A stretch of 64,000 bases of DNA from Nitrosopumilus sp. (GCA_965207075.1 CBDBLO010000002.1:480001-544000); one strand, 5' to 3'; positions 8,243-62,054 are shown, numbered from the stretch's first letter. A program made the numbers and translations. Notes: generated from the sequence alone by a model not told the origin.

Positions 8243-8688
8243 TCGAGTTGGGCCACGACTGATTTATATTTCCAAGTTCTGGGTATCCGCCCTATCTTCT
8301 TGTAGTATACGGACAGCCGGTGCACCTTTGCCTCGATGAGCTCAAGTGATCTGATGTTTCTGCGGTCGCCGTGGTTCTCCTTGAGGTGCTTTTGCAGGCC
8401 AATTGCCTTCCTTACCATGTTCTCAAGATCCTCCGGCATGTCGGGCCTGAGGCCGTTCTCCTCTAGTATCCTTCCCATCGTCTTGTCCGCCACCACCTTG
8501 ACAAGCGGGATGGCATGCTGATCCCTGAGCTTTATGCCTATCTGGCTCGGGGTCATGCCGTCCTTTGAGTACTTGACTACCGTCTTCTCTATCTCGTCTG
8601 CCGACTGCTTTACCCATTCGGGCTTTGTCAGTACGTGCGGCCTGATGGAATGTGACTTGCCATGTCTGTGCGTGTGCATTCGGCCCAT
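8239..8688 (-). CDS. rps15: 30S ribosomal protein S15 (uS15)
   Basis: MGRMHTHRHGKSHS...PSQIGIKLRDQH...LIEAKVHRLSVYYK. Start placed at ATG 8688. Confidence 0.97.
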   Translation of the reverse strand: MGRMHTHRHGKSHSIRPHVLTKPEWVKQSADEIEKTVVKYSKDGMTPSQIGIKLRDQHAIPLVKVVADKTMGRILEENGLRPDMPEDLENMVRKAIGLQKHLKENHGDRRNIRSLELIEAKVHRLSVYYKKIGRIPRTWKYKSVVAQLE

Positions 8689-8842
8689 GCCCCCTGCCAA
8701 CTGCGGTGTCAAATTAAACCTTACCAACCACTGCTTTCTTTCGCGTTGAGTACGGCCACGCCTGCGTGCGCGGTTTGAGATCTGACCGCCGTGCGGATGG
8801 GGTTTAAGAGGCATCAACCCCCTACTAGTATAGGCAAATGCC

Positions 8843-9219
8843 ATGGACACAAAGGTACTACTAGCGGCAACCGTGCTGTCGGTCTTCTCTTTGCCGCCGT
8901 GGGCGCCGCGTCGATCGCACCTGCCCAGTATATGGGCAACGTCGACAGTGACGGAGATCCCACCCCTCCTACGCTTGAGGAACCGTTGATCGAGGAACCG
9001 TTGATCGAGGAACCGTTGATCGAGGAACCGTTGATCTAGGCTCGGGAGAGGATCGGGCCCTCAGAGGCCAATCCCGCATCCGGATCGGGAACTCCATACC
9101 TTGACGCCGACGGCGTCGTGGGCGCGTCCGCCATGGCGGGCGCCGTCTTTGGCGGTATAGCAGGAGCCTTCTTCTTGAGGGGCCGTTCTGGCAAATACGC
9201 AGCACCGGGAGGTGGATGA
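8843..9219 (+). pseudogene. Disrupted tandem paralog of the amoZ-like gene at 9351-9683
   Basis: Colinear DNA similarity to 9351-9683. It has a 1-nt deletion near 8885-8890, a 4x15-bp expansion and an in-frame TAG at 9037-9039. Confidence 0.88.
8977..9036 (+). repeat. Perfect tandem repeat (GAGGAACCGTTGATC)x4, encoding EEPLI x4
   Basis: Read directly; units start at 8977, 8992, 9007 and 9022. Confidence 0.98.
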
Positions 9220-9350
9220 GACCCACGTGTCTTGCTGTGTGACGCCTAGCGCATGCCTTGTACGCCTTCAGGCCGCTCCGCCTGCGTCAGGCAGCTGTGC
9301 GGAATAAAGTTTTAAATAACTAATAATCACAATCACTGTAGGTAAACGCT

Positions 9351-9683
9351 ATGAACACAAAAGTACTACTAACAGCAACCATGCTGTCGGTCTTTTTCTT
9401 TGGTGCCATGGGCGCCGCATCGATCGCATTTGCCCAGTATATGGGCAATGTCGGCGGTGGCGGAGAGACCGGTGCTCATACGCTCGAAGAGATATTGGAG
9501 ATTCAGAGAAGGAGAATCGAGACGGCGGAAGCCAATCCTGCATCCGGATCGGGAACTCCATACCTTGACGCCGATGGCGTCGTGGGTGCGTCCGTCATAG
9601 CGGGCGCCGTCTTTGGCGGTATAGCAGGCGCCTTCTTCTTGAGGGGCCGTTCTGGCAAATACGCAGCAATGGGCCGAGGATAA
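9351..9683 (+). CDS. amoZ: AMO-associated membrane protein, probably AmoZ (signal peptide, short external domain, C-terminal TM helix)
   Basis: Signal peptide ending AFA-Q and C-terminal TM GASVIAGAVFGGIAGAFFL. It has its own TATA (TTTTAAATA at about 9310) and lies between rps15 and amoB. The Y/Z naming rests on topology and synteny only. Confidence 0.55.
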   Translation: MNTKVLLTATMLSVFFFGAMGAASIAFAQYMGNVGGGGETGAHTLEEILEIQRRRIETAEANPASGSGTPYLDADGVVGASVIAGAVFGGIAGAFFLRGRSGKYAAMGRG

Positions 9684-9891
9684 GACCTCTGGTTCTCTCT
9701 TTTATTATGTGTCGCCTAGCGTACGCTGTACCTGATTATCATGGCTGCCGTGGCGGTGCGATCGCCCCGATCGATCCTTGTTCGCGTCCTCCCCTCTCAC
9801 TCCCCTGGCACCTGCGCCTGGCCGGACCGTGCGGTTCGGCCGGCAGCAAAGAACAGAAATGTATATAACATACACATAGTTCAGATTCTTT

Positions 9892-10161
9892 ATGGAACCA
9901 ATAGTAGGAATCTTCCTAAGCATCCTATCCTCTATCTCAGGACAGCTAGGACCAAACTATGATCCGCTATTCTTTGATGTAATGATTTACATCTTCGGGA
10001 CCATGATGTTCACAATATTCCTCCTTGGAATCATTGCATTCTGGTTGCGTGTTCACGGATGGGCCTACAAGGACAACCGTGAGAAATGGGTCGACGAGCT
10101 GGACAGGCACTTTGAGCGTGAAGGTATAGGTCTGATTCCAGACAACGGCAAGTACTGGTAA
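9892..10161 (+). CDS. amoY: AMO-associated small membrane protein, probably AmoY
   Basis: 89 aa with a hydrophobic TM helix and a WVDELDRHFEREGIGLIP tail. GC is low, as in the amo genes, and there is a TATA (GTATATAA at about 9861). Named by synteny. Confidence 0.55.
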   Translation: MEPIVGIFLSILSSISGQLGPNYDPLFFDVMIYIFGTMMFTIFLLGIIAFWLRVHGWAYKDNREKWVDELDRHFEREGIGLIPDNGKYW

Positions 10162-10312
10162 GTGCCTGCCTTTCCATATTTTATGATTATTTTTAGTCCT
10201 TTGTTGTCTTTCTGCCTTGGTGCATGTTGCCGCCCCACCGCCGTCGGAAGCACTGTGCCAGTCCTGCCTCTGCCTGCAGGTGCGCCGTGACCGGTGCCAG
10301 TCCTGCCGCGCG

Positions 10313-10834
10313 CTAGTTTCCCGGCGGTAAAAAGTCCGAGTCCTTTGACGTGTCGTAGTCCTTTGACGTAAACACGGCCTTGTAGTGGGCCCCATCGGTA
10401 AACGGGTGGTTTGTAAAGTGCGGTGACGGCTGGTCGTCAACAAATATCATTGACTTGTCCTGTACCATGTCTCTGAGCGGAAAGTCCCACATCCACAAAA
10501 AGTGGCCGATCTCAAACGGGTATTCCTCCTCCCACTCTGCATATATCGTTCCGTCGTCGGACAGCGTATACATTGTTCTCTGACATTCGTCGGTATTCCC
10601 GATGTTGGCAGGAATCTCCGCCTCTATCCCGTCCACTATCAGCTCGAGCGTGGCGGTGATCGTGTAGGGCGTCACGCGGTCGTTGATGCAGGCCTTGAGC
10701 GGGTTGTCCGCGTTGACCACATACTGTATGGAGGCGCTGGCGGCCGCCACCGATATACCGATTATGGCCGTAATTATCAGAAAGCGTATCGTCTTTTTGC
10801 GCTTGTACGGATCACTGGTGCCGGGCCAGATCAT
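10313..10834 (-). CDS. Conserved AOA membrane-anchored hypothetical protein in the amo neighbourhood
   Basis: N-terminal TM followed by a two-Cys external domain (IPANIG...C...T...DGTIY.E...F.IGHFL..W). Start placed at ATG 10834. Confidence 0.75.
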   Translation of the reverse strand: MIWPGTSDPYKRKKTIRFLIITAIIGISVAAASASIQYVVNADNPLKACINDRVTPYTITATLELIVDGIEAEIPANIGNTDECQRTMYTLSDDGTIYAEWEEEYPFEIGHFLWMWDFPLRDMVQDKSMIFVDDQPSPHFTNHPFTDGAHYKAVFTSKDYDTSKDSDFLPPGN

Positions 10835-11110
10835 GATTGATCGCCACCGCCGGTTGATAAATCCCTTTCCATAAACGCCCGGTATGCCGTGGCGCAACAG
10901 TACGTTCCGCTCCCCCCTCCCTCTCTTCCGAACCAGCCTCTGCCTGTCCGTCCTGTCGGGTGCCAGGCCCATAGTTCATGCGCGTTGCGCATGAGGGAGC
11001 GCGCGGCTCCGCCGTGCCCCCCCGGCGCCGCTTCAAGGATGCCGCATCTGCTGCGCGGCCTGCCTGCAGCGGCGACCAGGCGTTTGCCATCACCACCGCA
11101 CCCACCACCG

Positions 11111-11470
11111 TCACTTGACGCCGCTGTAGTCAACCTCTATCGTGTCAAGCTCGTCTTGGTGGTCGGCCAGATAGTACGTGATCGCGTCCGAGTCGATCTC
11201 AAGCCACTCCGACTTGCCGCCGTACGTAAGCCAGTCTTCCACGTAGAGTCCGCGCGGCCCCGACACCCTGACCAACATTCTTGCCGGCCCGCCGCCACCG
11301 AATCCCGGCAGATGGAAGGGAAGTCTCAGCACCTTGTCCCTCCTCTGGCCCTGGATGTTTGCCCTGTATGCGTCTGAACGGAATTCTACCGTTCCTGTAA
11401 AATAGCTCTGCGCAATGTCCAGCCTGATTATCTTAAAGTTCAGCAACGCGCGCGCATGCAGCCTCCTCAA
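11111..11470 (-). CDS. Hypothetical protein downstream of amoB
   Basis: Protein-like ORF (FKIIRLDIAQSYFTG...EWLEIDSDAITYYLADHQDE). The start is uncertain. Confidence 0.7.
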   Translation of the reverse strand: MRRLHARALLNFKIIRLDIAQSYFTGTVEFRSDAYRANIQGQRRDKVLRLPFHLPGFGGGGPARMLVRVSGPRGLYVEDWLTYGGKSEWLEIDSDAITYYLADHQDELDTIEVDYSGVK

Positions 11471-11530
11471 GATAAACGTGCGGAACCGACGGCTCTGGGA
11501 TAAAATGAAAGGAAAAAGGGATTTGGGTTT

Positions 11531-12100
11531 TTAGATCACTTGCCAGGGTCTCGTGGCAAACGTAATCACATACCCGACGCCTATAATGATAGACTGGTAT
11601 GCGATGTTCACGTATGGAATCGGCTTGAGTATGTTGTCGCCTTCCACGACCACTGTCTGGCCCGGACCAAGTCCTGGCCCGACGCTGGCCACGTTGAGCT
11701 GCGTGTGTACGTGGTACACTCCGGCCTCAAGCGCCTTTGCAGACAGCGTATAGTCTATCTGGCTGTTTCCAGGAATGTCAAAGACGTTGCCCGGGGGATC
11801 CCTAGCTAGCATCTCCCATCTGTTGCCGGCGTTCGTGGACTCTGAGAAGATGGACAGCCATCCTCTGAGGTCTCTCTCCACGAGACTGACCAGCGTTCCT
11901 GTCAATGTGAGGGTCTCGCCAGTCTGTAGAGACTGCCTGTTGAACGTCTCATCCTCGATTCTGATGAACCGGCTCTGGAGCTGTGCCTGGACGCCGTGCG
12001 CCTCTGCGGTAGGAATGACGGCCTCGACCCAGTCGAAGCCAAGTGTTCCCAGCGCAAGCACTGCGGCCAGTCCTAATACGAAAATCTTCTTTTCGAACAT
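11531..12100 (-). CDS. amoB: Ammonia monooxygenase subunit B
   Basis: AEAHGVQAQLQSRF N-terminal His motif, YHVHTQLN and TFATRPWQVI. 189 aa from ATG 12100. Confidence 0.98.
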   Translation of the reverse strand: MFEKKIFVLGLAAVLALGTLGFDWVEAVIPTAEAHGVQAQLQSRFIRIEDETFNRQSLQTGETLTLTGTLVSLVERDLRGWLSIFSESTNAGNRWEMLARDPPGNVFDIPGNSQIDYTLSAKALEAGVYHVHTQLNVASVGPGLGPGQTVVVEGDNILKPIPYVNIAYQSIIIGVGYVITFATRPWQVI

Positions 12101-12456
12101 AGTATCCCTTGCTATATGGGGGAATAGCATACCGTTATATGTTTTTCCTGAGGCTTGTGCCTAGCGAGGGGCGTCTGCCAGCCCCTCATGCCGCCCGGCG
12201 TCCTTCCGTATCCGATCTTACGTGTGCGCCGGGAACTGGTTTGCGGCGGGGATGCCGGTTCCTGCCGCGTCCCGGCCGGAGTATGGGCGTCTGCAGGCGG
12301 GCCAGGCGGCATTGGCGCGCCTGACGGCAGTGTATTCCGGGATGCAGGTGCGCACGCATGGTCCAGGTCCTGCCGGCAAGCAGGCCGGGCACAAGATGCG
12401 AGGGCGGGAATCTGATTGGCGTCAAATACTGCTGGACTGCGGCAGCAACGCCACGC

Positions 12457-14313
12457 CTACGTCTTGGATATGTCGCGAGGAAAGAACAGGTCCACCAGCC
12501 AGTCGAACCCGACGCGCACCTTCTTCTCGGTGGTTGGCAGCATTGAGAGGTAGTAGTGCTTCCATACAAACCACGCCGCAAGCCCGTGCATTCTCACTCC
12601 CTTCATCAGGGCCACGCCCTCCATGTTCCCTATCTTGGCCACGAACCCGTCCGCGTCGTATGTAAATTTGTCCTGCTTCTCTATGCCGCGTATCCTGTTT
12701 GCAAGGTTGTTGGCGACAACTTTTGCCTCCTGCGCTGCGTGCTGGGCTGTAGGCGGGTACGGCGTCCCGTCGCGCGGATCCGTGATGAATGCGCAGTCGC
12801 CCAGCGCAAAGATGTCCGGGTTGTTCTTCAGGCTCAGGTTCGAGTTTACAACGACGCGCCCGGACTTGTGGTGTTCGGTGTCCAGATTCGCCACGATCTC
12901 GTCCACCATGCCGCCGGCCGCCCAGATGAGTGTCTCGGTTTCTATGACGGTCCCGTCGTTGAGGGTCGCCACGCCGCCGGAGTATTCGGTCAGCCTTACG
13001 TTGATGTGTATCGTAACGCCCGCCTTTGTGAGCGCCGACATGGCGTGCGCGCTCAGGGCGCTCACCTCCGGAAGTACGACGCTTGACGATACCAGGATCA
13101 CCCTTATTGACGACATAGGTATGTTGTGGTAGTACTTTCTGACCGAGTCGCGCACAAACGAGTTCAGCTCGCCCACCGTCTCCACGCCGGAAAAACCCCC
13201 TCCCACGACCACGAAGGTCATCAGCCTGGCCTTGGCGGCCGGGTCCTGCTCCAGATCGGCGCCCTCGAGCGCCCCGATTGCATGGTTTCTGATCTTGATG
13301 GCGTCTTCTAGTTTTCTGATCTTGAGCGCATTGCGCTTGACGCTCTCGTTTCCAAAAAAGTTGGCCTTCATTCCAGACGCTATGACCAGATAGTCGTACG
13401 GCAGCACGCTAGTACTATCCGACTCGGTCCGGCGTATGGTCACCTGCCTCTCCTTGAGGTCTATTGCGGTTACGCGGGCCTGGTAGAATCGAGCCCTATG
13501 GCAGAACTTCCTGATGGGCGTCGCGATATGCCTCGGTTCTATGGAGCCCGTGGCCATCTCCGGCAGCATTGGCGTGTGCAAGAAAAAGTTTGACTCGTTT
13601 ACGAGGCCTATGCTCACGTCGACGTCGTCGTGGAACTTTTTTTGCAGGCGGTTCAGTACCCCGACGCCGGCGTACCCCCCGCCCAGTATCAGCACGCGCC
13701 TCATTGACTGCGAGCCCTTCCCGTGCACGTGCGCTATGTGGGCCTTTCGTGTTGCGCTGTTGAAGAACTCCACATCGCACTCGCGGCATATGTAATTGGC
13801 GCCAAACCTGCGCGTTAGGAAGGAGGTCACGGATCCCATTATCAGGCCCCATAGCAGGTGTATGCCCAACGATTCGAGTATGACTGTGGTAAAGTCCAAC
13901 TGTTCCGCGTGCGCGTCGGTGGCAAGCGACGGGGACATTATCAGGTATATCATGGGCATTGCAAATATGATGAATGCCATGCCGCCTGCGAGCAGCCCGA
14001 AGATCAGGCCCATTGAAGGGCGCGAGATGTCCATCTTGAGCGCGCGGTGCAGTATAACGCCTGTCACGACCCCTATGATGGTGGACACAAAGATGTGCAG
14101 CAGGAATCCCGCCCCGTCGTCGTGCCCGTCCGACTCTCCGGCCGGCAGCACCTGCGACAATATCTCGTGCGACAGTTCCTCAAAGGAGCTGTAGAAGATG
14201 GCGGGTACGTGCATGGCCAGCGCGCCCGCAATCGAGCCGAGTATCACAAACGTGACCTCCTTCCGCAATAGGAAGTTTACCTTGCAGTCGACCTCCTCAA
14301 CGCTATCGCTCAA
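12457..14313 (-). CDS. Type II NADH:quinone oxidoreductase (NDH-2) with an N-terminal 4-TM domain and a C2H2 zinc finger
   Basis: GGGYAG and GGGFSGVE Rossmann motifs, ALGDC, quinone-site motif AQHAAQ and C-terminal amphipathic helices. The N-terminal hydrophobic helices are followed by CRECDVEFFNSATRKAHIAHVH. Confidence 0.88.
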   Translation of the reverse strand: MSDSVEEVDCKVNFLLRKEVTFVILGSIAGALAMHVPAIFYSSFEELSHEILSQVLPAGESDGHDDGAGFLLHIFVSTIIGVVTGVILHRALKMDISRPSMGLIFGLLAGGMAFIIFAMPMIYLIMSPSLATDAHAEQLDFTTVILESLGIHLLWGLIMGSVTSFLTRRFGANYICRECDVEFFNSATRKAHIAHVHGKGSQSMRRVLILGGGYAGVGVLNRLQKKFHDDVDVSIGLVNESNFFLHTPMLPEMATGSIEPRHIATPIRKFCHRARFYQARVTAIDLKERQVTIRRTESDSTSVLPYDYLVIASGMKANFFGNESVKRNALKIRKLEDAIKIRNHAIGALEGADLEQDPAAKARLMTFVVVGGGFSGVETVGELNSFVRDSVRKYYHNIPMSSIRVILVSSSVVLPEVSALSAHAMSALTKAGVTIHINVRLTEYSGGVATLNDGTVIETETLIWAAGGMVDEIVANLDTEHHKSGRVVVNSNLSLKNNPDIFALGDCAFITDPRDGTPYPPTAQHAAQEAKVVANNLANRIRGIEKQDKFTYDADGFVAKIGNMEGVALMKGVRMHGLAAWFVWKHYYLSMLPTTEKKVRVGFDWLVDLFFPRDISKT

Positions 14314-15039
14314 CTCAACCTACAGCCTCCGTTATCGCGGTGATTATATTTCCTTGTCGTACTGCCGTTTGGGCGGCTAGTTCCAAAACAAGCTCCCCCA
14401 CTGGGTCGGGCCGTTTGGAGCTGCTGTTGCCGTTGATGTCACTCTCAGCGTCATTGCCGCGTAAAATATAGCGCCGTTTGATATAACCATAGCGACGACT
14501 GTTCATTGCGGCACGGGGCATCTCTCAGTGCATAGTCATGGTGTGCCGTCTTGCGTGCCAGACGCCTGCAGGCCCAAACGTCCGTCTGTTGGCTCGGGGG
14601 CGATCCGGGCCGAGGGTTTGGAAACAAAAGTGACGTCGCGCTACGGCATATGCCTGCAACAGACACGCGTGCGAGTCTCCGACTCTGACCGGTTTTGTCG
14701 TTTGAATCTGCAGCGGGTGTCTGGCATGTCCCCGCATATGCTTGGACCGGTTGCGCCGCCCGTCGTTGGATCTGCCGCCGCTGCCGGCAAACCTTGGCTG
14801 CAGTCACCTCCCCCTCTTCCCCCGTTACTGGATGCGATCCCCCACGACTAACGTGCCGCGTACGCCCCGGCAGGATTCACGGCGCGGCTCAGGCTGCCCC
14901 GGGCCCGTGCCTGAAGGCGGAGCGCTTGCGGTGTCCAATGATTAACATTGATGATTAACATCAAACTTGGTGGTTGTTTGTAATGTTGTATTGCATATTT
15001 TATGGTATAAAATACTAAAAATTTCATACCTTGTTTGCA

Positions 15040-15105
15040 AAAATGTAAGTCTTACACTATTCCTCGTGCAATTGCATTCCTGTACTTTATATGTAAGATA
15101 CAGGT
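15040..15105 (+). promoter_or_regulatory. amoC promoter with palindromic upstream elements
   Basis: TTTATATG at 15086-15093, with palindromes TGTAAG-T-CTTACA (15043-15055) and TGCAATTGCA (15067-15076), inside an AT-rich island. Confidence 0.55.
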
Positions 15106-15115
15106 GATAACACAC

Positions 15116-15679
15116 ATGGCACAAATGCCAGCACTAATCCCAAAGGAAGTCGAGATCCAGAGACTCAAGAAGATCTGGCTGATCGTCATTGCGATGGGAT
15201 CAACTGCAGCATCCGTCGAGGTGGACAACTTTGTTGACGGTTCACTCCACCAGACATCCATCAGGGACAGCGCGTTTACGCCTGCGCACTGGTGGCTGTA
15301 TTCGCACTTTGTTGCACTCCCACTAGGCTGGGGTGCGGCCGCGATATATGACCGAAAGGTTCCGGTTCTCAGAGGCCCCAACAACTCTATGAACACGGGT
15401 CTGAAGATGACCATTCTTGGCTATCTGGCGACCATGTTCACGATTGGAGTCAACGAGATGTGGCACTTTTGGTTTGTAGAGGAGATCTTTGCCGTGCCGA
15501 ACCACTGGATGTTCAATATGGGCGTCGTAGTGGCGTTCATGGGCGCACTGGCCTACGTGGTCAGGGTGTACGCTCGGTTGGTAGAACTGGGCGCCGAGAC
15601 TCCTGGAGAGAACCCGTATGTTGCAGAGATGTACAAGATGGCCCTAGAGGGCAAGCTGTACAGCAGATCAATCCCGTAG
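15116..15679 (+). CDS. amoC: Ammonia monooxygenase subunit C
   Basis: MAQMPALIPKEVEIQRLKK, DGSLHQTSIRDSAFTPAH and NEMWHFWFVEEIFAVPNHW. An alternative start is GTG 15104. Confidence 0.98.
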   Translation: MAQMPALIPKEVEIQRLKKIWLIVIAMGSTAASVEVDNFVDGSLHQTSIRDSAFTPAHWWLYSHFVALPLGWGAAAIYDRKVPVLRGPNNSMNTGLKMTILGYLATMFTIGVNEMWHFWFVEEIFAVPNHWMFNMGVVVAFMGALAYVVRVYARLVELGAETPGENPYVAEMYKMALEGKLYSRSIP

Positions 15680-15680
15680 G

Positions 15681-15709
15681 GTGTGGGTCTTTTTCACACT
15701 CTTCTTTTC
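15681..15709 (+). terminator. Putative amoC terminator
   Basis: GTGTG...CACAC short hairpin with T-rich tracts directly after the stop codon. Confidence 0.5.
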
Positions 15710-16047
15710 GGCTCGTGCGTGGGAGGCCCTGCGCAACACCGTACGCCGGCATAGGCAGGGATTGCTACTGCGGGGCCGGACGCGTACCCTTTGCCTACCG
15801 TTCTCCTTGACGCGATCGCCGCATGCCCTGCTCTTGCCTGTTGCGATCAGAGACGTGCGTTCGACACCGCGGTTTGCCGGCTGTGTGCTTGGGGGTGTCG
15901 TTTCCCGTGCCTGCCTGACGCCCGGTACGCTTGGCCCGCCTGATGCGTCTTGGAAGCGGTAGCCAGTTGACTCTGCTTATATGTCCCTGCTGCCGCCTTG
16001 GCAACCCCTAAGAAAGATTTAAAACTATTACAGCATACACACCTACA

Positions 16048-16413
16048 ATGACTCTTCCAAAAGGGTTTGGTTCTGGCGGTGCCGGAGGTTCCTCTAGCGC
16101 CGACGTAGAACGTATGATTGGAAGGCGCGTTGAGAACATGACCGGTCTGATTACCATATCGTTCTGGGCAGCATGGTTGGCAACATTTGGAGGTACGGCA
16201 GCAGGATACTATTACTATCCGTGGGCATACCCGACCCCGAGTGGACACTTTGCATTCATCGTACTTACCATCATCGAAGCAATAGGCTACATCTTCTGCG
16301 TAAAGGTCATGGAAGAAGGCTCAAACAAGAACAGCAACGGCATTGTGGCCGGCAGCGTTGCCGCTGTAGCGGCAGGCACAATCGCAATCTCGCTGTTCGT
16401 TGAGGGCGCTTGA
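16048..16413 (+). CDS. amoX: Ammonia monooxygenase subunit X
   Basis: MTLPKGFG...ERMIGRRVEN...YPWAYPTPSGHFAFIVLTIIEAIGY, lying between amoC and amoA. TATA (TTTAAAA) at about 16018. Confidence 0.92.
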   Translation: MTLPKGFGSGGAGGSSSADVERMIGRRVENMTGLITISFWAAWLATFGGTAAGYYYYPWAYPTPSGHFAFIVLTIIEAIGYIFCVKVMEEGSNKNSNGIVAGSVAAVAAGTIAISLFVEGA

Positions 16414-16564
16414 TTGCAAGAAGGGTTAACCTTCAACCTTTTTCATTTTCTCTTGTTTTGGGTGCTGCGTCACCGTTCTCCCCTTGGGCACGGGCAGGAC
16501 ATGCCTCATGAAACTGCCATTGCGCTTTGATGCGAGGCATGCCTGGAACCATGTGGCCGGCAGA

Positions 16565-17650
16565 GTTGTTGTGCAAAAAGTAGGCCCCCGTAGGATCGGG
16601 CGTACAAGTCAGCTACTAACGGACCGGTCATCAAAGACCGCCCAAAGAGACTGCCGGGTAAGTCACGCCAGCATTTGGACTGGGATCGGGAAGCGGGTCC
16701 CCGCTTCCGGGGCAGCAAAGGATCTTGGAACTTCCACCATGCGCGTGCAGGAGCTGGGCAATACTCCGTACGACTCGGATTATGCGTGCCGATGGGCAGT
16801 TCGCGCTCCTATATGCGAGGGCAGGATAGGCGGTAACCGCACCTGTCAGAGACGGCCGGTCTTGGCCATACTCGCCGCAGGAAGGTTGAGGAGGAGGAGG
16901 AGAAGAAGAAGGAATCGCGATATTAGTTACACCGCGGCATACTGTGTTGAAGAAGGGCGGCGCCGCGGATCCCCCTGCAGCAGGGTCGGAGGTGCAGGCG
17001 GGCGCGTCACTGGCGTGCACCTCGGCACCATGTGACGTGTGGACTGGCACACCACGAAGGATCCGCGCTTTTCAAGCAGAGCCTCGTTACATGCATGGAC
17101 GATGCCCCTGTGCGCGCCACGTATGTGACGCTCCTGGAATCCGTGATGGCTCTCAGGCCTGCAGCTAAGAGGCTTGGCGCACCTGCGTCCGTGCTGTCTG
17201 ACGACGGGCCCTGCCCTGCGGGACAGAATGGCAGAAGAGGGGAAAGGGGGAGGAGGGGAAGGGGGCAGGTCCGTCGTCCTTGGGGGCCGCTTGGGGGCTA
17301 TGCCGCGCCTGGGGGCGGCTCTGGGAGGGACGCGAGGCGCGGCACCGTCCTTGGGGGCCGCTTGGGGGCTATGCCGCGCCGGCTGCTGCCCGGCCGTGCG
17401 GGCAACAGACGGGCGGCAAGCCGGTGCGGTTCCATCGCAGCCTGGAAGCGGAGATCCTCTGATGGCCTCGGGTGGTGCATGGATCTACGACGAGTCGGGG
17501 CTACGCTTCGCTGGATGTCGACGACTACGAGACGTCGCTGGTGCCACTCAGGCACAAGGAATGATCGGGGCGATCAGAAGCATCGATCCCAAGTGGGCGG
17601 GTGACACCTACGACCCTGGGGAAAAGAAGACCCATTTTTCATACAATGCC
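16565..17650 (+). mobile_element. Fossil (multiply frameshifted) IS481-family element, homologous to the intact IS at 61017-62054
   Basis: Fragments GKRVPASGAAKDLG, RRPV...NRDISY, DWHTTKDPRFS, GAPASVLSDDGPCPAGQNGR, LDVDDYET and GAIRSIDPKW align in order with the 61041-61973 transposase. Eroded TIRs are present at both ends. Confidence 0.9.
17275..17379 (+). repeat. Direct repeat of about 34 bp (CGTCCTTGGGGGCCGCTTGGGGGCTATGCCGCGCC) inside the fossil IS
   Basis: Copies start at about 17275 and about 17346. Confidence 0.85.
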
Positions 17651-17739
17651 CATGATCCTAGGCGGGCCGACTCTCTGTATGACTGGAGTGCGTTCCTGAT
17701 TCTAAAATTTTATATACCTATCCTTAATTCAATAAACCA

Positions 17740-18390
17740 ATGGTCTGGTTAAGACGATGTACACACTACTTGTTCATAGTAGTGGTTGCAGTTAACTCTA
17801 CGCTGCTGACGATTAATGCGGGAGATTACATCTTCTATACTGACTGGGCTTGGACATCGTATACGGTATTCTCAATATCGCAGACGCTGATGCTTGTAGT
17901 TGGTGCTACCTACTATCTTACCTTTACAGGCGTTCCAGGTACGGCCACGTATTACGCGTTAATCATGACCGTGTATACATGGGTCGCCAAGGGGGCATGG
18001 TTTGCGCTCGGCTACCCATACGACTTCATAGTGACGCCAGTCTGGTTGCCGTCGGCAATGTTGCTCGACTTGGTATACTGGGCGACGAAGAAGAACAAGC
18101 ACTCGCTGATACTGTTTGGCGGCGTACTGGTTGGAATGTCGTTACCGCTGTTTAACATGGTGAACCTGATAACGGTAGCCGATCCGCTGGAAACTGCATT
18201 CAAGTATCCGAGGCCGACATTACCGCCGTACATGACGCCAATAGAACCGCAGGTAGGCAAGTTCTACAATAGTCCGGTCGCGTTGGGCGCCGGTGCTGGC
18301 GCGGTGCTGGCGTGTACGTTTGCCGCGTTGGGCTGCAAGCTCAACACGTGGACGTACAGGTGGATGGCCGCTTGGTCAAAGTGGGACTAG
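17740..18390 (+). CDS. amoA: Ammonia monooxygenase subunit A
   Basis: MVWLRRCTHYLFIVVVAVNSTLLTINAGDYIFYTDW...NTWTYRWMAAWSKWD. TATA (TTTATATA) at about 17709. Confidence 0.99.
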   Translation: MVWLRRCTHYLFIVVVAVNSTLLTINAGDYIFYTDWAWTSYTVFSISQTLMLVVGATYYLTFTGVPGTATYYALIMTVYTWVAKGAWFALGYPYDFIVTPVWLPSAMLLDLVYWATKKNKHSLILFGGVLVGMSLPLFNMVNLITVADPLETAFKYPRPTLPPYMTPIEPQVGKFYNSPVALGAGAGAVLACTFAALGCKLNTWTYRWMAAWSKWD

Positions 18391-18619
18391 GAGAAATCCC
18401 ACCCCATTTTCATTTTCTCTATTTTTCTTGCTCAGTCGCGCCGTGCGTGCTCGGGCCGGTTGAAAATGCGCGCGCAAAGCGGGATCCGGGGTTATTCTGG
18501 CCGTGAGCCTGCTGTCGATTCGGGTATGAGTTTGAGTCGTGTGTGATTCGTTTTTTTTTACCAATAACTCAACCGTTTTATTTTCAATGTGTAATTACCA
18601 GTGTCCTGATGGCCCGTTG

Positions 18620-19516
18620 ATGCGCAGACAGGTTGCGTCGTCGGGATACCGTCCGAGGCCGTTTGTAAAGTGGGCCGGCGGCAAGCGCCAGATATTGCCC
18701 GCGGTGAGCGGCGGCATGCCGGAGTCGTTTGGCGGGTACTTTGAGCCCTTTCTGGGAGGAGGCGCCCTGTTCTTCCATGTTGCGCCGGCAGGCTCAAAGG
18801 GCGGCAAGGACAGCCGCGACGGCGCGCATCCATTCCACATATCAGACCTGAATCGGGAGCTTGTCTTGGCATATCAGATGATCCGCGACCGTCCTGAGGA
18901 TCTCCTGCGCGCGCTACGCGACCACGAGGCCGGCTACAGGGCGGACCCCGAGTCGTACTATTACAGCGTACGTGACGGCTATGACCCTGGCAGCGCCGGC
19001 GACATCGATACTGCGTCCAGGCTGATATTCCTGAACAAGACGTGCTTTAACGGACTGTACCGCGTCAACAGCCGCGGAAAATTCAACGTGCCGCTTGGCC
19101 GGTATGCAAACCCGACCATAGCCGACGAGCAGAACATACTTGCCGTAAGCGAGATACTGAACCTGAGCAACGTCCACGTATCGTGCGAGGACTTTGGGGC
19201 CGTGGCGCGCAAGGCGCGCAGGGGGGACTTTGTGTACTTTGATCCGCCGTACATGCCGGTCAGCAGGACTGCCAGCTTTACCAGGTACACGTGCGGTGAC
19301 TTTGGGATTGAGGACCAACGGAGGCTGGCCGATCTGTGCGTCACGCTTGACGAGATGGGATGCCACGTGCTGCTGTCAAACTCGGACTCTGGCGTCATAA
19401 GCGAGATGTTTGCAAGGGATGAGTGGACCGTAGAGCGCGTCAGCGCAAGCCGCTGCATCAACTCGGATTCTGGTAGGCGCCTCGGGCATACCGAGCTGCT
19501 GATTAGAAACTATTGA
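18620..19516 (+). CDS. dam: Dam-family (D12 class) N6-adenine DNA methyltransferase with no adjacent endonuclease
   Basis: KWAGGK, EPFLGGGA, FNGLYRVN, YFDPPY and ELLIRNY. Start placed at ATG 18620. Confidence 0.92.
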   Translation: MRRQVASSGYRPRPFVKWAGGKRQILPAVSGGMPESFGGYFEPFLGGGALFFHVAPAGSKGGKDSRDGAHPFHISDLNRELVLAYQMIRDRPEDLLRALRDHEAGYRADPESYYYSVRDGYDPGSAGDIDTASRLIFLNKTCFNGLYRVNSRGKFNVPLGRYANPTIADEQNILAVSEILNLSNVHVSCEDFGAVARKARRGDFVYFDPPYMPVSRTASFTRYTCGDFGIEDQRRLADLCVTLDEMGCHVLLSNSDSGVISEMFARDEWTVERVSASRCINSDSGRRLGHTELLIRNY

Positions 19517-19635
19517 CGCCTTGGCGGGCTGACCGCCTTGTCGCCCGGCTGCCCGCATGCGGTTTTCCAGATGGTGGCAGCTGCAGTCTGTCGCGGCCGG
19601 GGCATGGCGCGGAGCTGTGATTGTGGTAATAATAA

Positions 19636-61016: not shown

Positions 61017-62054
61017 TGTATTATATGAAAAGTCGGTCCGCTACTCATGTGCATCCTTCTCCATCCATTTCGGGTCGTTCTTCCTGATCGCCCCGGTCGC
61101 CCTCTTGTTCCTGAATGCCATCCGCGGCGTCTCGTAGTTGTCGATGTCCAACGAGAAGTGCAGCCTTGACTCGTTGTAATAGTCTACGTACTCCCTGAGG
61201 CTTCCATAGTGGTGTATCTCCTCCTCCAGGCTGCGGTGGAACCTCTCCAGCTTGCCGTTTGTCTGGGGGTGGTAGGGACGGGCGTTTATCAGGGCAATGT
61301 CCCTCTCAAGCAGCTCCTCCTCAAAGACGGTGGGCTGCCACTTCCCCCTTCCCTTCTTGCGGCCGTTCTGCCCCACAAAGCACGATCCGTTGTCGGACAG
61401 TATGGACGCGGGGGCGCCGAACCTCCTGATTGCAAGCCTGAGGAGCATTACCGCGTTCTCGGACGTGGCGTGCTCGAAGAGCGCCGCGCCCGTGACGCAC
61501 CTGGACGCATCGTCCAAATATGTGATGAGATTCATGCCTGAAAAGCGGGGATCCTTGATGACGTGCCAGTCCGTATGCCACATGGCATTGGAGTACGTGC
61601 GCTCGTACCGCACCCACTTGCGCCTCTTTGATCTCGCCGCCGAGGCCTCCACGGCGCCGCTCTTCTTCAACGCGCGGTACACGGCGGCGTAACTAATATC
61701 GTGATTCCTTCTCAGCTCCCTTGCGGTGCGTACGACTCCGACCGGCCGCCTCTGGTGGGCGTCGGTTATCAGCCGTATCTGGGCCCCCGTGATGCAGGCG
61801 CGCGGCCTGCCCATCTGCACGCGTATGGTTCCAGTCTTCTGGAACCTTGCCCACAGCCTTCGTACGTGCCGGATGGAGATTCCAAGGTCTTTTGCCACTT
61901 CGGGAGCCGGCACCCCCTTCCCGAGCCTCCTGACCAGGTGCTTCCCGGCCTTTTCTGTCAGTCCCTTTGACACTGGCTTTCGTGATCGGTGCAGCCTAAA
62001 ATAATCGGCTACAATCCGCCTGATCCTGCGGTGACCTACTTTCCGTATAATAGA
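61017..62054 (-). mobile_element. Intact IS481-family insertion sequence with TIRs of about 21 bp and a 15-bp TSD
   Basis: Ends TGTATTATATGAAAAGTCGGT and reverse complement TCTATTATACGGAAAGTAGGT. TTGAATAGTACGTAT occurs at 61002-61016 and 62055-62069. Confidence 0.93.
61041..61973 (-). CDS. IS481-family DDE transposase
   Basis: HTH, WHTDWH, LDDASR, LSDNG and HPQTNGKLER motifs. Confidence 0.95.
   Translation of the reverse strand: MSKGLTEKAGKHLVRRLGKGVPAPEVAKDLGISIRHVRRLWARFQKTGTIRVQMGRPRACITGAQIRLITDAHQRRPVGVVRTARELRRNHDISYAAVYRALKKSGAVEASAARSKRRKWVRYERTYSNAMWHTDWHVIKDPRFSGMNLITYLDDASRCVTGAALFEHATSENAVMLLRLAIRRFGAPASILSDNGSCFVGQNGRKKGRGKWQPTVFEEELLERDIALINARPYHPQTNGKLERFHRSLEEEIHHYGSLREYVDYYNESRLHFSLDIDNYETPRMAFRNKRATGAIRKNDPKWMEKDAHE

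Follow-up and report, generated by a model that had tools for sequence, protein, structure and literature searches.

A gene for a long-form NADH dehydrogenase of type II (NDH-2), here called NDH2L, was found within the ammonia monooxygenase (AMO) gene cluster of a Nitrosopumilus sp. The window, the whole stretch of 64,000 nucleotides that was analyzed (GCA_965207075.1 CBDBLO010000002.1:480001-544000), has a G+C content of 55 to 63% and contains an archaeal amo cluster, with NDH2L located between the divergent amoB and amoC genes. The reading that best fitted the data, with a probability of roughly 0.65, is that NDH2L belongs to an accessory family and encodes a general, possibly NADPH-using, putative quinone reductase, which came to lie among the amo genes by one relocation and not through an AMO-specific role. 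The archaeal AMO needs two electrons, and finding a reductase encoded among the amo genes gives a natural lead to their source; the original prediction, made from the window sequence, had proposed a candidate dedicated electron donor for AMO. The comparative evidence makes this lead weak, since the location reflects one recent event in one small clade with a transposase-invaded cluster, and the enzyme is dispensable for most of the ammonia oxidizers searched.

Domain architecture of NDH2L

The gene and its parts are as follows.

12457..14313, minus strand: NDH2L, an open reading frame (ORF) of 618 amino acids (aa) with a TTG start and a TAG stop, identified by Pfam and by sequence and fold matches
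13804..14313, minus strand: N-terminal membrane module, residues 1-170, with four predicted transmembrane (TM) helices and weak DUF6789/YqhR similarity
13720..13800, minus strand: single predicted C2H2 zinc finger, residues 172-198, from the ligand pattern, conservation and a beta-beta-alpha model
12460..13698, minus strand: NDH-2 catalytic core, residues 206-618, with Rossmann folds for FAD and NAD(P)H, the AQHAAQ motif and C-terminal amphipathic helices

The core was assigned from several comparisons. Pfam Pyr_redox_2 matched residues 206-530 at E 3.5e-39 (135.4 bits against a cut-off of 26.1), and NDH2_C matched residues 556-614 at E 4.3e-08 (33.7 bits against 27.7). By sequence, the closest solved protein was the mycobacterial NDH-2 9mqy (E 1.2e-44), followed by those of C. 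thermarum, Ndi1 and S. aureus, with the solved NDH-2s matching at E 1e-44 to 1e-33. When the AlphaFold model of the protein (built on 59 relatives; pLDDT 82.4, pTM 0.72) was searched with Foldseek, NDH-2 structures occupied ranks 1-28 with a TM-score by target of 0.75-0.92; at the head were 9mqy and 4nwz, with TM-scores by target of 0.84-0.89 and E values of about 1e-31 to 1e-32. Both GxGxxG motifs were present, as ILGGGYAGVG and VVGGGFSGVE, and their GGGYAG and GGGFSG segments were kept in 34/34 long forms. The quinone site of NDH-2s is marked by the motif AQxAxQ, found here as AQHAAQ at residues 523-528 (12727-12744). This exact form was limited to the metagenomic protein P0007 and three members of the amo-linked group of four genes described below, most other long forms having AQHAIR(Q/E)A. 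The C-terminal helices were modeled at residues 578-591 and 595-610. The Rossmann motifs, quinone-site motif and C-terminal helices named in the original prediction were therefore all recovered, and its description of a membrane-anchored, zinc-finger NDH-2 agreed with the Pfam matches, solved relatives, predicted fold, four predicted helices and C2H2 pattern. As judged from these features, NDH2L is intact and probably functions as a non-proton-pumping NAD(P)H:quinone oxidoreductase.

Other flavoprotein identities (SQR, CoA-disulfide reductase and FSP1) were set aside because their matches were much weaker or partial. FSP1 and SQR matched the core at E 1e-11 and 3e-8, against 1e-44 for NDH-2, and all 16 NCBIfam equivalog hits (CoA-disulfide reductase, SQR, NirB and others) fell far below their cut-offs, the best being TIGR03169 with 102 against 310 bits.

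In NDH-2s, whether NADH or NADPH is used depends on an acidic residue located where the second strand (beta-2) of the nucleotide fold ends. At this position NDH2L has Ser409, which aligns with the Asp/Glu of the solved enzymes (rvilvSss against RVILLDAA and RIINVEAA). The acidic residue was absent from the long forms (0/34), whereas Glu occupied the site in 8/8 short paralogues, including the one encoded in the same genome as the window (G000). With Ser standing in for the usual Asp/Glu, NDH2L probably accepts NADPH, and the long forms, none of which is acidic there, may be NADPH:quinone reductases, which would bear on the NADPH balance of these autotrophs. The missing acidic residue concerns cofactor preference and not membership in the NDH-2 family. 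That a point mutation can switch the specificity of NDH-2 appears as a general statement in 10.1101/2025.10.14.682086.

The N-terminal module was more difficult to classify. TM helices were predicted by AlphaFold at residues 16-33, 66-92, 99-126 and 141-170, with the invariant residues E19, H73, H152 and W155 within or at the ends of these helices. The charges of the module, acidic in loops 1 and 3 but basic in loop 2 and at the helix ends, fit an N-in/C-in topology, which would place the finger and the flavoprotein on the cytoplasmic side. The finger pattern, C176-x2-C179-x12-H192-x4-H197, fits the spacing C-x2-4-C-x12-H-x3-5-H, and among the 59 relatives C176, C179 and H192 were invariant and H197 was at least 90% conserved. 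The finger was modeled as beta-beta-alpha, with strands 172-175 and 181-182 and a helix at 186-197. Pfam scores for this half of NDH2L were below their cut-offs for YqhR (E 1.4e-4, 22.3 bits, cut-off 27), DUF6789 (E 0.023, 15.2 bits, cut-off 27.1) and zf-C2H2 (12 bits, cut-off 25.2). With the N-terminal 205 aa as query, a word-indexed search among proteins of similar length gave no match, and the relatives came from a profile search: the module profile retrieved 306 proteins from 1.84 billion representatives, including stand-alone forms of 180-230 aa. Several stand-alone relatives passed the cut-offs of DUF6789 and zf-C2H2 (among the proteins retrieved, P0184, P0253 and P0262 had DUF6789 scores of 41.3, 35.2 and 31.1 bits, respectively), and a stand-alone DUF6789 plus zf-C2H2 cluster was found in the protein atlas (score 0.94). 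On the strength of these stand-alone relatives, NDH2L was read as a fusion of a DUF6789-like plus C2H2 module with an NDH-2. No fold was assigned to the module, as its separate model (pLDDT 67) gave a best Z of 6.7 against 48,161 solved chains, within the range of unrelated helical bundles.

Compared with the solved NDH-2s (4nwz, 9mqy, 5na1 and Ndi1 4g6g), NDH2L has the same two Rossmann folds, GxGxxG and AQxAxQ motifs, NDH2_C helices and overall fold, but carries ∼205 extra N-terminal residues, comprising the four predicted TM helices and the finger, and Ser409 in place of Asp/Glu. Canonical NDH-2s are monotopic, unlike NDH2L. The short paralogue of G000 (C2:193150-194617, 488 aa) is 39-44% identical to the NDH2L core and has the same motifs, but it lacks the N-terminal module, has the Glu typical of short forms at the nucleotide site and falls in a separate clade (support 100). 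A Gly/Asn/Asp-rich insert at about residues 280-305 of this paralogue (L002 1441-2907) splits its match in two. The stand-alone DUF6789 (+C2H2) proteins of Nitrososphaerota and other archaea share the same four-helix module, often with one or two fingers, and are unfused to a flavoprotein. A literature search returned no description of the fused architecture, and the words "transmembrane," "zinc" and "fusion" were absent from 10.1101/2025.10.14.682086. The combination of a DUF6789-like four-helix anchor, a C2H2 finger and an NDH-2 core is apparently an undescribed NDH-2 architecture. It is scattered through this family of ammonia-oxidizing archaea beside a near-universal short NDH-2, and most of the novelty lies in this fused form.

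In the proposed mechanism, the four-helix module and the cytoplasmic finger would hold the NDH-2 core at the inner membrane face. Hydride from NAD(P)H would pass to FAD, and FAD would reduce a membrane quinone beside the C-terminal amphipathic helices. The quinol would then enter the common pool, so that any supply of reductant to AMO would run through the shared quinol pool, as with any quinone reductase.

Distribution and probable relocation of the long form

Of 151 species-level genomes of the genus, 32 (counting G000) had the N-terminal module, against 129 with amoB. The long form is a patchy accessory family within this archaeal family, and most AMO-bearing genomes searched lacked the gene. 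The short NDH-2 was near-universal, with an NDH-2 match of any form in 33 of 36 sampled genomes of the genus. At the family level, the module profile matched 112 of 401 genomes and 21 of 27 genera (stand-alone modules counted), and full-length long forms were present in many other genera. One of the long forms, P0066, is attributed to Nitrosopumilus ureiphilus. Among metagenomes, 45 of 80 loci were long forms when scanned with an alignment; no relative was returned by the metagenome scan that used NDH2L as a single sequence. Larger genomes were richer in carriers (18/42 with a size of at least 1.9 Mb, compared with 14 among the ∼107 smaller genomes listed), by a hand count of genomes that are not independent.

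NDH2L was located inside the amo cluster in only four species-level genomes, all closely related and of high GC. The order amoB-NDH2L-amoC(-amoX-amoA) is common to G000 (the window), G152, G112 (a short contig) and G096. Identity to the window protein was 95-97% in G152 and G112 and 87% in G096, against 97-100% for the amo proteins. In 25 wide loci from 23 other genomes of the genus, no amo gene was found inside or beside NDH2L. G086 was a partial exception, with NDH2L about 8-9 kb from amoB, beyond recJ (L112, G086:C19:10000-29900, 13505-15348); this copy has a frameshift that breaks it near residue 157-159 and is either a pseudogene or an assembly error. Of the 28 other carriers in the genus, 14 had amoB on the same contig, 9 kb to 1.4 Mb away (53, 74 and 173 kb among them), and 14 had it on a different contig. 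Outside the genus, 22 of 25 carriers had amoB, none of them near NDH2L (0/22), and in seven complete genomes the two genes were 0.5-1.6 Mb apart.

The original prediction gave amoC and amoB as adjacent loci in N. maritimus, and they are direct neighbors elsewhere in the genus: their spacing was 175-387 bp in 25 of 26 other-species loci, the 26th ending at a contig edge. This short spacing indicates that adjacent, divergent amoB and amoC are the ancestral state and that the clade of the window has an insertion of ∼2.9 kb. In a maximum-likelihood tree of 42 rows, obtained by a quick search and with SH-aLRT support values, the long forms made up one clade relative to the short forms (100), and the four amo-linked genes made up one clade within it (100). 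The sisters of the amo-linked genes were the metagenomic proteins P0007-P0009 (65-69% identical), followed by the G156 group. By AmoB identity (94%), too, G156 was the closest genome not belonging to the clade. Its NDH2L is 173 kb from amoB, and the genes flanking it map to C2:562-564 kb and 585-595 kb of G000, between which no NDH2L was found in G000. From the position in G156 and the tree, vertical descent followed by one relocation gave the best fit. The placement between amoB and amoC was therefore most likely a single, recent, clade-specific relocation in the ancestor of this small, high-GC lineage, which is rich in insertion sequences (IS).

These data bear directly on the proposal that the gene had been recruited into the AMO locus. 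The recruitment itself was supported, since the gene is placed in the cluster in four genomes of one clade; the dedicated AMO role was not supported. In every relative outside the four-genome clade the gene lay at an unrelated locus, an outcome that the original prediction had listed as refuting, being unlinked in 28/28 carriers of the genus and 22/22 of other genera. Its restricted occurrence relative to amoB, its faster evolution and its own TATA-like element and TTG start (both below) also argued against a dedicated donor.

Outside the amo-linked clade, the commonest neighbor of NDH2L was an ArsR-type regulator, at 13 of 25 loci (e.g., L033, L034, L035 and L114-L117). A class I/II aminotransferase was often present, and DoxX, a ZIP transporter, a glyoxalase and DUF7482 were also observed. 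Such neighbors would suit a protein that is mainly a membrane-tethered redox sensor or regulator, or a flavoprotein steered to another acceptor or partner, for example in an FSP1-like or DoxX-linked quinone/thiol stress system. The existence of the module on its own at 180-230 aa with one or two C2H2 fingers is consistent with this, the invariant E19, H73, H152 and W155 suggest a ligand or metal site, and FSP1 and SQR are more distant relatives by both sequence and fold. However, the core is far closer to true NDH-2s, by the E values given above, the NDH2_C membrane helices and quinone motif are retained, and the neighbors vary between loci. A single C2H2 finger, moreover, rarely gives specific DNA binding. 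A sensor or a flavoprotein with another acceptor therefore appeared unlikely.

Constraint, RNA-library contigs and a possible link to AMO

The ratio of nonsynonymous to synonymous substitution rates (dN/dS) was calculated by the NG86 method for the window against G152 and against G096.

NDH2L, whole: 0.21 against G152, 0.40 against G096
NDH2L, N-terminal module: 0.35 against G152, 0.68 against G096
NDH2L, core: 0.18 against G152, 0.27 against G096
amoA, amoB, amoC and amoX: 0-0.16 in both comparisons
Flanking dam and prx: 0.10-0.23 in both comparisons

NDH2L is maintained, but the constraint is looser than on the surrounding genes, and the gene evolves several-fold faster than amo. These values raised the question of a decaying passenger, left between amoB and amoC by rearrangement, barely expressed and heading for loss. 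Consistent with such a fate, NDH2L had the highest dN/dS of the region, above all in its N-terminal module against G096, it begins with TTG, a dead transposase also lies in the amo cluster, and the G086 copy is frameshifted. On the other hand, all four species have a full-length open frame, the window protein has every invariant column of the 59-sequence alignment, and dN/dS is well below 1, particularly in the core. Decay toward loss was accordingly judged very improbable.

RNA evidence was taken from the assembled contigs of four RNA-library runs over 9000-19600, which are blind to level, strand, transcript ends and co-transcription and may include carried-over DNA. The contigs covered amoA, amoB, amoC and amoX, and pieces of NDH2L were present as X1 (12347-12889) and X3 (13725-14129), from two studies. 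Among the RNA-library contigs listed, none bridged NDH2L and amoB.

The alternative closest to the original prediction is that NDH2L was recruited as an AMO-linked reductant module, in which organic or host-derived NAD(P)H would reduce quinone next to AMO and the N-terminal module may dock the protein to AMO. In its favor, four species-level genomes have the gene within the cluster, where it has been kept intact, the canonical AQHAAQ is confined to amo-linked genes and P0007, and the RNA-library contigs of two studies hold parts of it. NDH-2 was once also proposed as a donor to particulate methane monooxygenase (pMMO) by Cook and Shiemke (2002), as cited in PMC4831470. The idea shared with Methylococcus capsulatus is that quinone reduced by NDH-2 serves a copper membrane monooxygenase; that proposal, as presented in PMC4831470, rests on biochemistry and not on gene linkage, and the same text reports that the M. 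capsulatus NDH-2 is not co-regulated with pMMO. Several further observations argued against an AMO-linked module. With the amo proteins of the four genomes nearly identical, the shared synteny may be due to ancestry alone. Linkage was absent from all other carriers in the genus and in other genera, most AMO-bearing genomes searched had no such gene, and constraint was most relaxed on the very module that would dock. NDH2L also has its own TATA-like element and TTG start, and another sponge symbiont has the plain amoA-amoX-amoC-amoB order, according to PMC6790972. Recruitment as an AMO-linked module was considered unlikely.

Proximity to amo genes was seen twice more, each time loosely and in what appear to be separate cases. 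Besides G086, the metagenome contig L143 (5018 bp) carries a long-form NDH-2 (45% identical) with the start of an amoC 3.1 kb downstream at the contig end; no amoB was found on this contig, and unrelated small ORFs lie between NDH-2 and amoC. Together with the clade of the window, this makes about three proximity events where about one would be expected by chance, a rough estimate that gives a weak indication and, not being independent of phylogeny or of extra amoC copies, is suggestive at most.

Along with this estimate, a number of points weigh against a general reductase relocated by chance. That a random relocation would hit just the amo cluster is improbable a priori. The NDH2L frame has stayed intact across the divergence of four species, with dS up to 0.17. 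No strong or clear oligo-T terminator was found in the NDH2L-amoB spacer, and read-through into amoB is therefore possible, as an AMO-linked module would allow. The suggestion of NADPH use, in turn, is drawn from one residue position and general background on its role. In a more elaborate scenario, the ancestor of this high-GC symbiont clade would have acquired NDH2L, as a membrane-anchored and probably NADPH-accepting enzyme, within its amo cluster, and read-through would give co-expression with amoB, so that host- or storage-derived reductant would reduce quinone beside AMO and keep ammonia oxidation going, or set it off again, at times when electrons from hydroxylamine are lacking. If true, archaeal AMO would have its first reductant route with a genetic mark, but this was regarded as a long shot.

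The membrane-protein genes amoX, amoY and amoZ provide a useful comparison, as they also lie close to amoABC. In PMC10030591, AmoX, AmoY and AmoZ are named for conservation across ammonia-oxidizing archaea, synteny, high expression and co-migration with AMO. NDH2L differs from them in conservation, given its 32/151 against 129/151 for amoB, and in synteny, which extends over four genomes of one clade. The same source (Hodgskiss et al. 2023, PMC10030591) describes "Ca. Cenarchaeum symbiosum" as an exception in amo synteny, and Hallam et al. (2006, PMC1403158), in the text available, report that its amo genes extend across about 6 kb and have hypothetical genes nested among them. In that available text of PMC1403158, the phrase "pyridine nucleotide" is absent and no mention of NDH-2 was found. 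A literature search linking NDH-2 with ammonia-oxidizing archaea yielded nothing relevant, in one case among the best 25 of 122 papers listed, although supplementary tables, which lie outside such a search, may list the gene.

Gene starts, putative expression signals and mobile DNA in the amo cluster

The remaining features of the cluster are listed below; Pfam matches to the flanking genes were Archaeal_AmoA, AmoC and Monooxygenase_B.

11531..12100, minus strand (ORF call begins 12130): amoB, matched by the AmoB models of Pfam and NCBIfam, with 86-99% identity within the genus
15116..15679, plus strand (ORF call begins 15035): amoC, with Pfam AmoC match and likely ATG at 15116
16048..16413, plus strand: amoX, 98-99% conserved in the four-genome clade and 81% in G086
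17740..18390, plus strand: amoA, with Pfam Archaeal_AmoA match at E 1.3e-116
14343..14351, minus strand: TATA-like element AAATATAAT, ∼30 nt upstream of the NDH2L TTG start
14478..14496: 19-nt block TTGATATAACCATAGCGAC, ∼170 nt upstream of NDH2L, from the four-genome alignment
12134..12146, minus strand: promoter-like TATA-type block AAAAACATATAAC of amoB, invariant in four genomes
15085-15093, plus strand: TATA-like element CTTTATATG of amoC, read upstream of ATG 15116
16685..17570, plus strand: decayed rve-type transposase pseudogene, found by tblastn in three frames within the amoX-amoA spacer (16414-17739)
61041-61973, minus strand: intact 310-aa helix-turn-helix plus rve transposase, used as the tblastn query

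The ORF between amoB and amoC on the amoB strand was thereby confirmed as originally described. The name amoX was taken from the gene order amoA-amoX-amoC-amoB given in PMC7848895. For amoB, the start is most likely the second Met at 12100, behind the invariant AAAAACATATAAC block, which leaves a gap of ∼355 bp to NDH2L, in agreement with the distance first reported; measured from 12130, the gap is 326 bp. The amoB TATA box noted in the original prediction corresponds to this conserved upstream block. The start of amoC is most likely ATG 15116 and not 15035. The TATA-like element AAATATAAT of NDH2L was conserved in the alignment of G000, G152 and G112 and partly in G096, and may act as its promoter. 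The block TTGATATAACCATAGCGAC was identical in the four genomes although the surrounding spacer varies, and it may serve as a further promoter-like element or bind a factor. An Rfam scan of 8500-19000 at E ≤ 0.1 gave no match.

The start codon of NDH2L is TTG in all four members of the clade and ATG in G021. In G152 (L070 9471-9490), an 18-nt direct duplication at the gene start adds six residues. The NDH2L-amoB spacer contains a repeat unit of ∼26 nt, CCCCTGGCGCACACGTAAGATCGGAT, at 12205-12235, present as one copy in the window and as two in G152, G112 and G096.

The transposase pseudogene matched the intact 310-aa copy over residues 17-145, 148-198 and 227-294 in three frames. The amoX-amoA spacer that contains it is 1.3 kb in the window and in G152 and 2.4 kb in G096, with 81-84% nucleotide identity, many indels and no conserved ORFs. 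Two more transposase copies, 97% identical, were located at C2:1652843 and C2:2166406, along with many more distant ones, and by this abundance of copies the genome is IS-rich. With the transposase as a tblastn query, no remnant was found in either spacer flanking NDH2L, so the mechanism of its relocation is a matter of inference.

Directly after amoA, a D12-class Dam-type DNA methyltransferase is encoded at 18539-19516 (plus strand), and the same neighbor, 56% identical, is present in G086. Two tandem paralogues at 8791-9040 and 9351-9683, located downstream of amoB and orf219, encode a small protein with a signal peptide ("orf110") and may represent the amoY/amoZ region. The first "orf110" copy contains a 15-nt tandem repeat (8977-9040, 4.3 copies) coding for EEPLI repeats.

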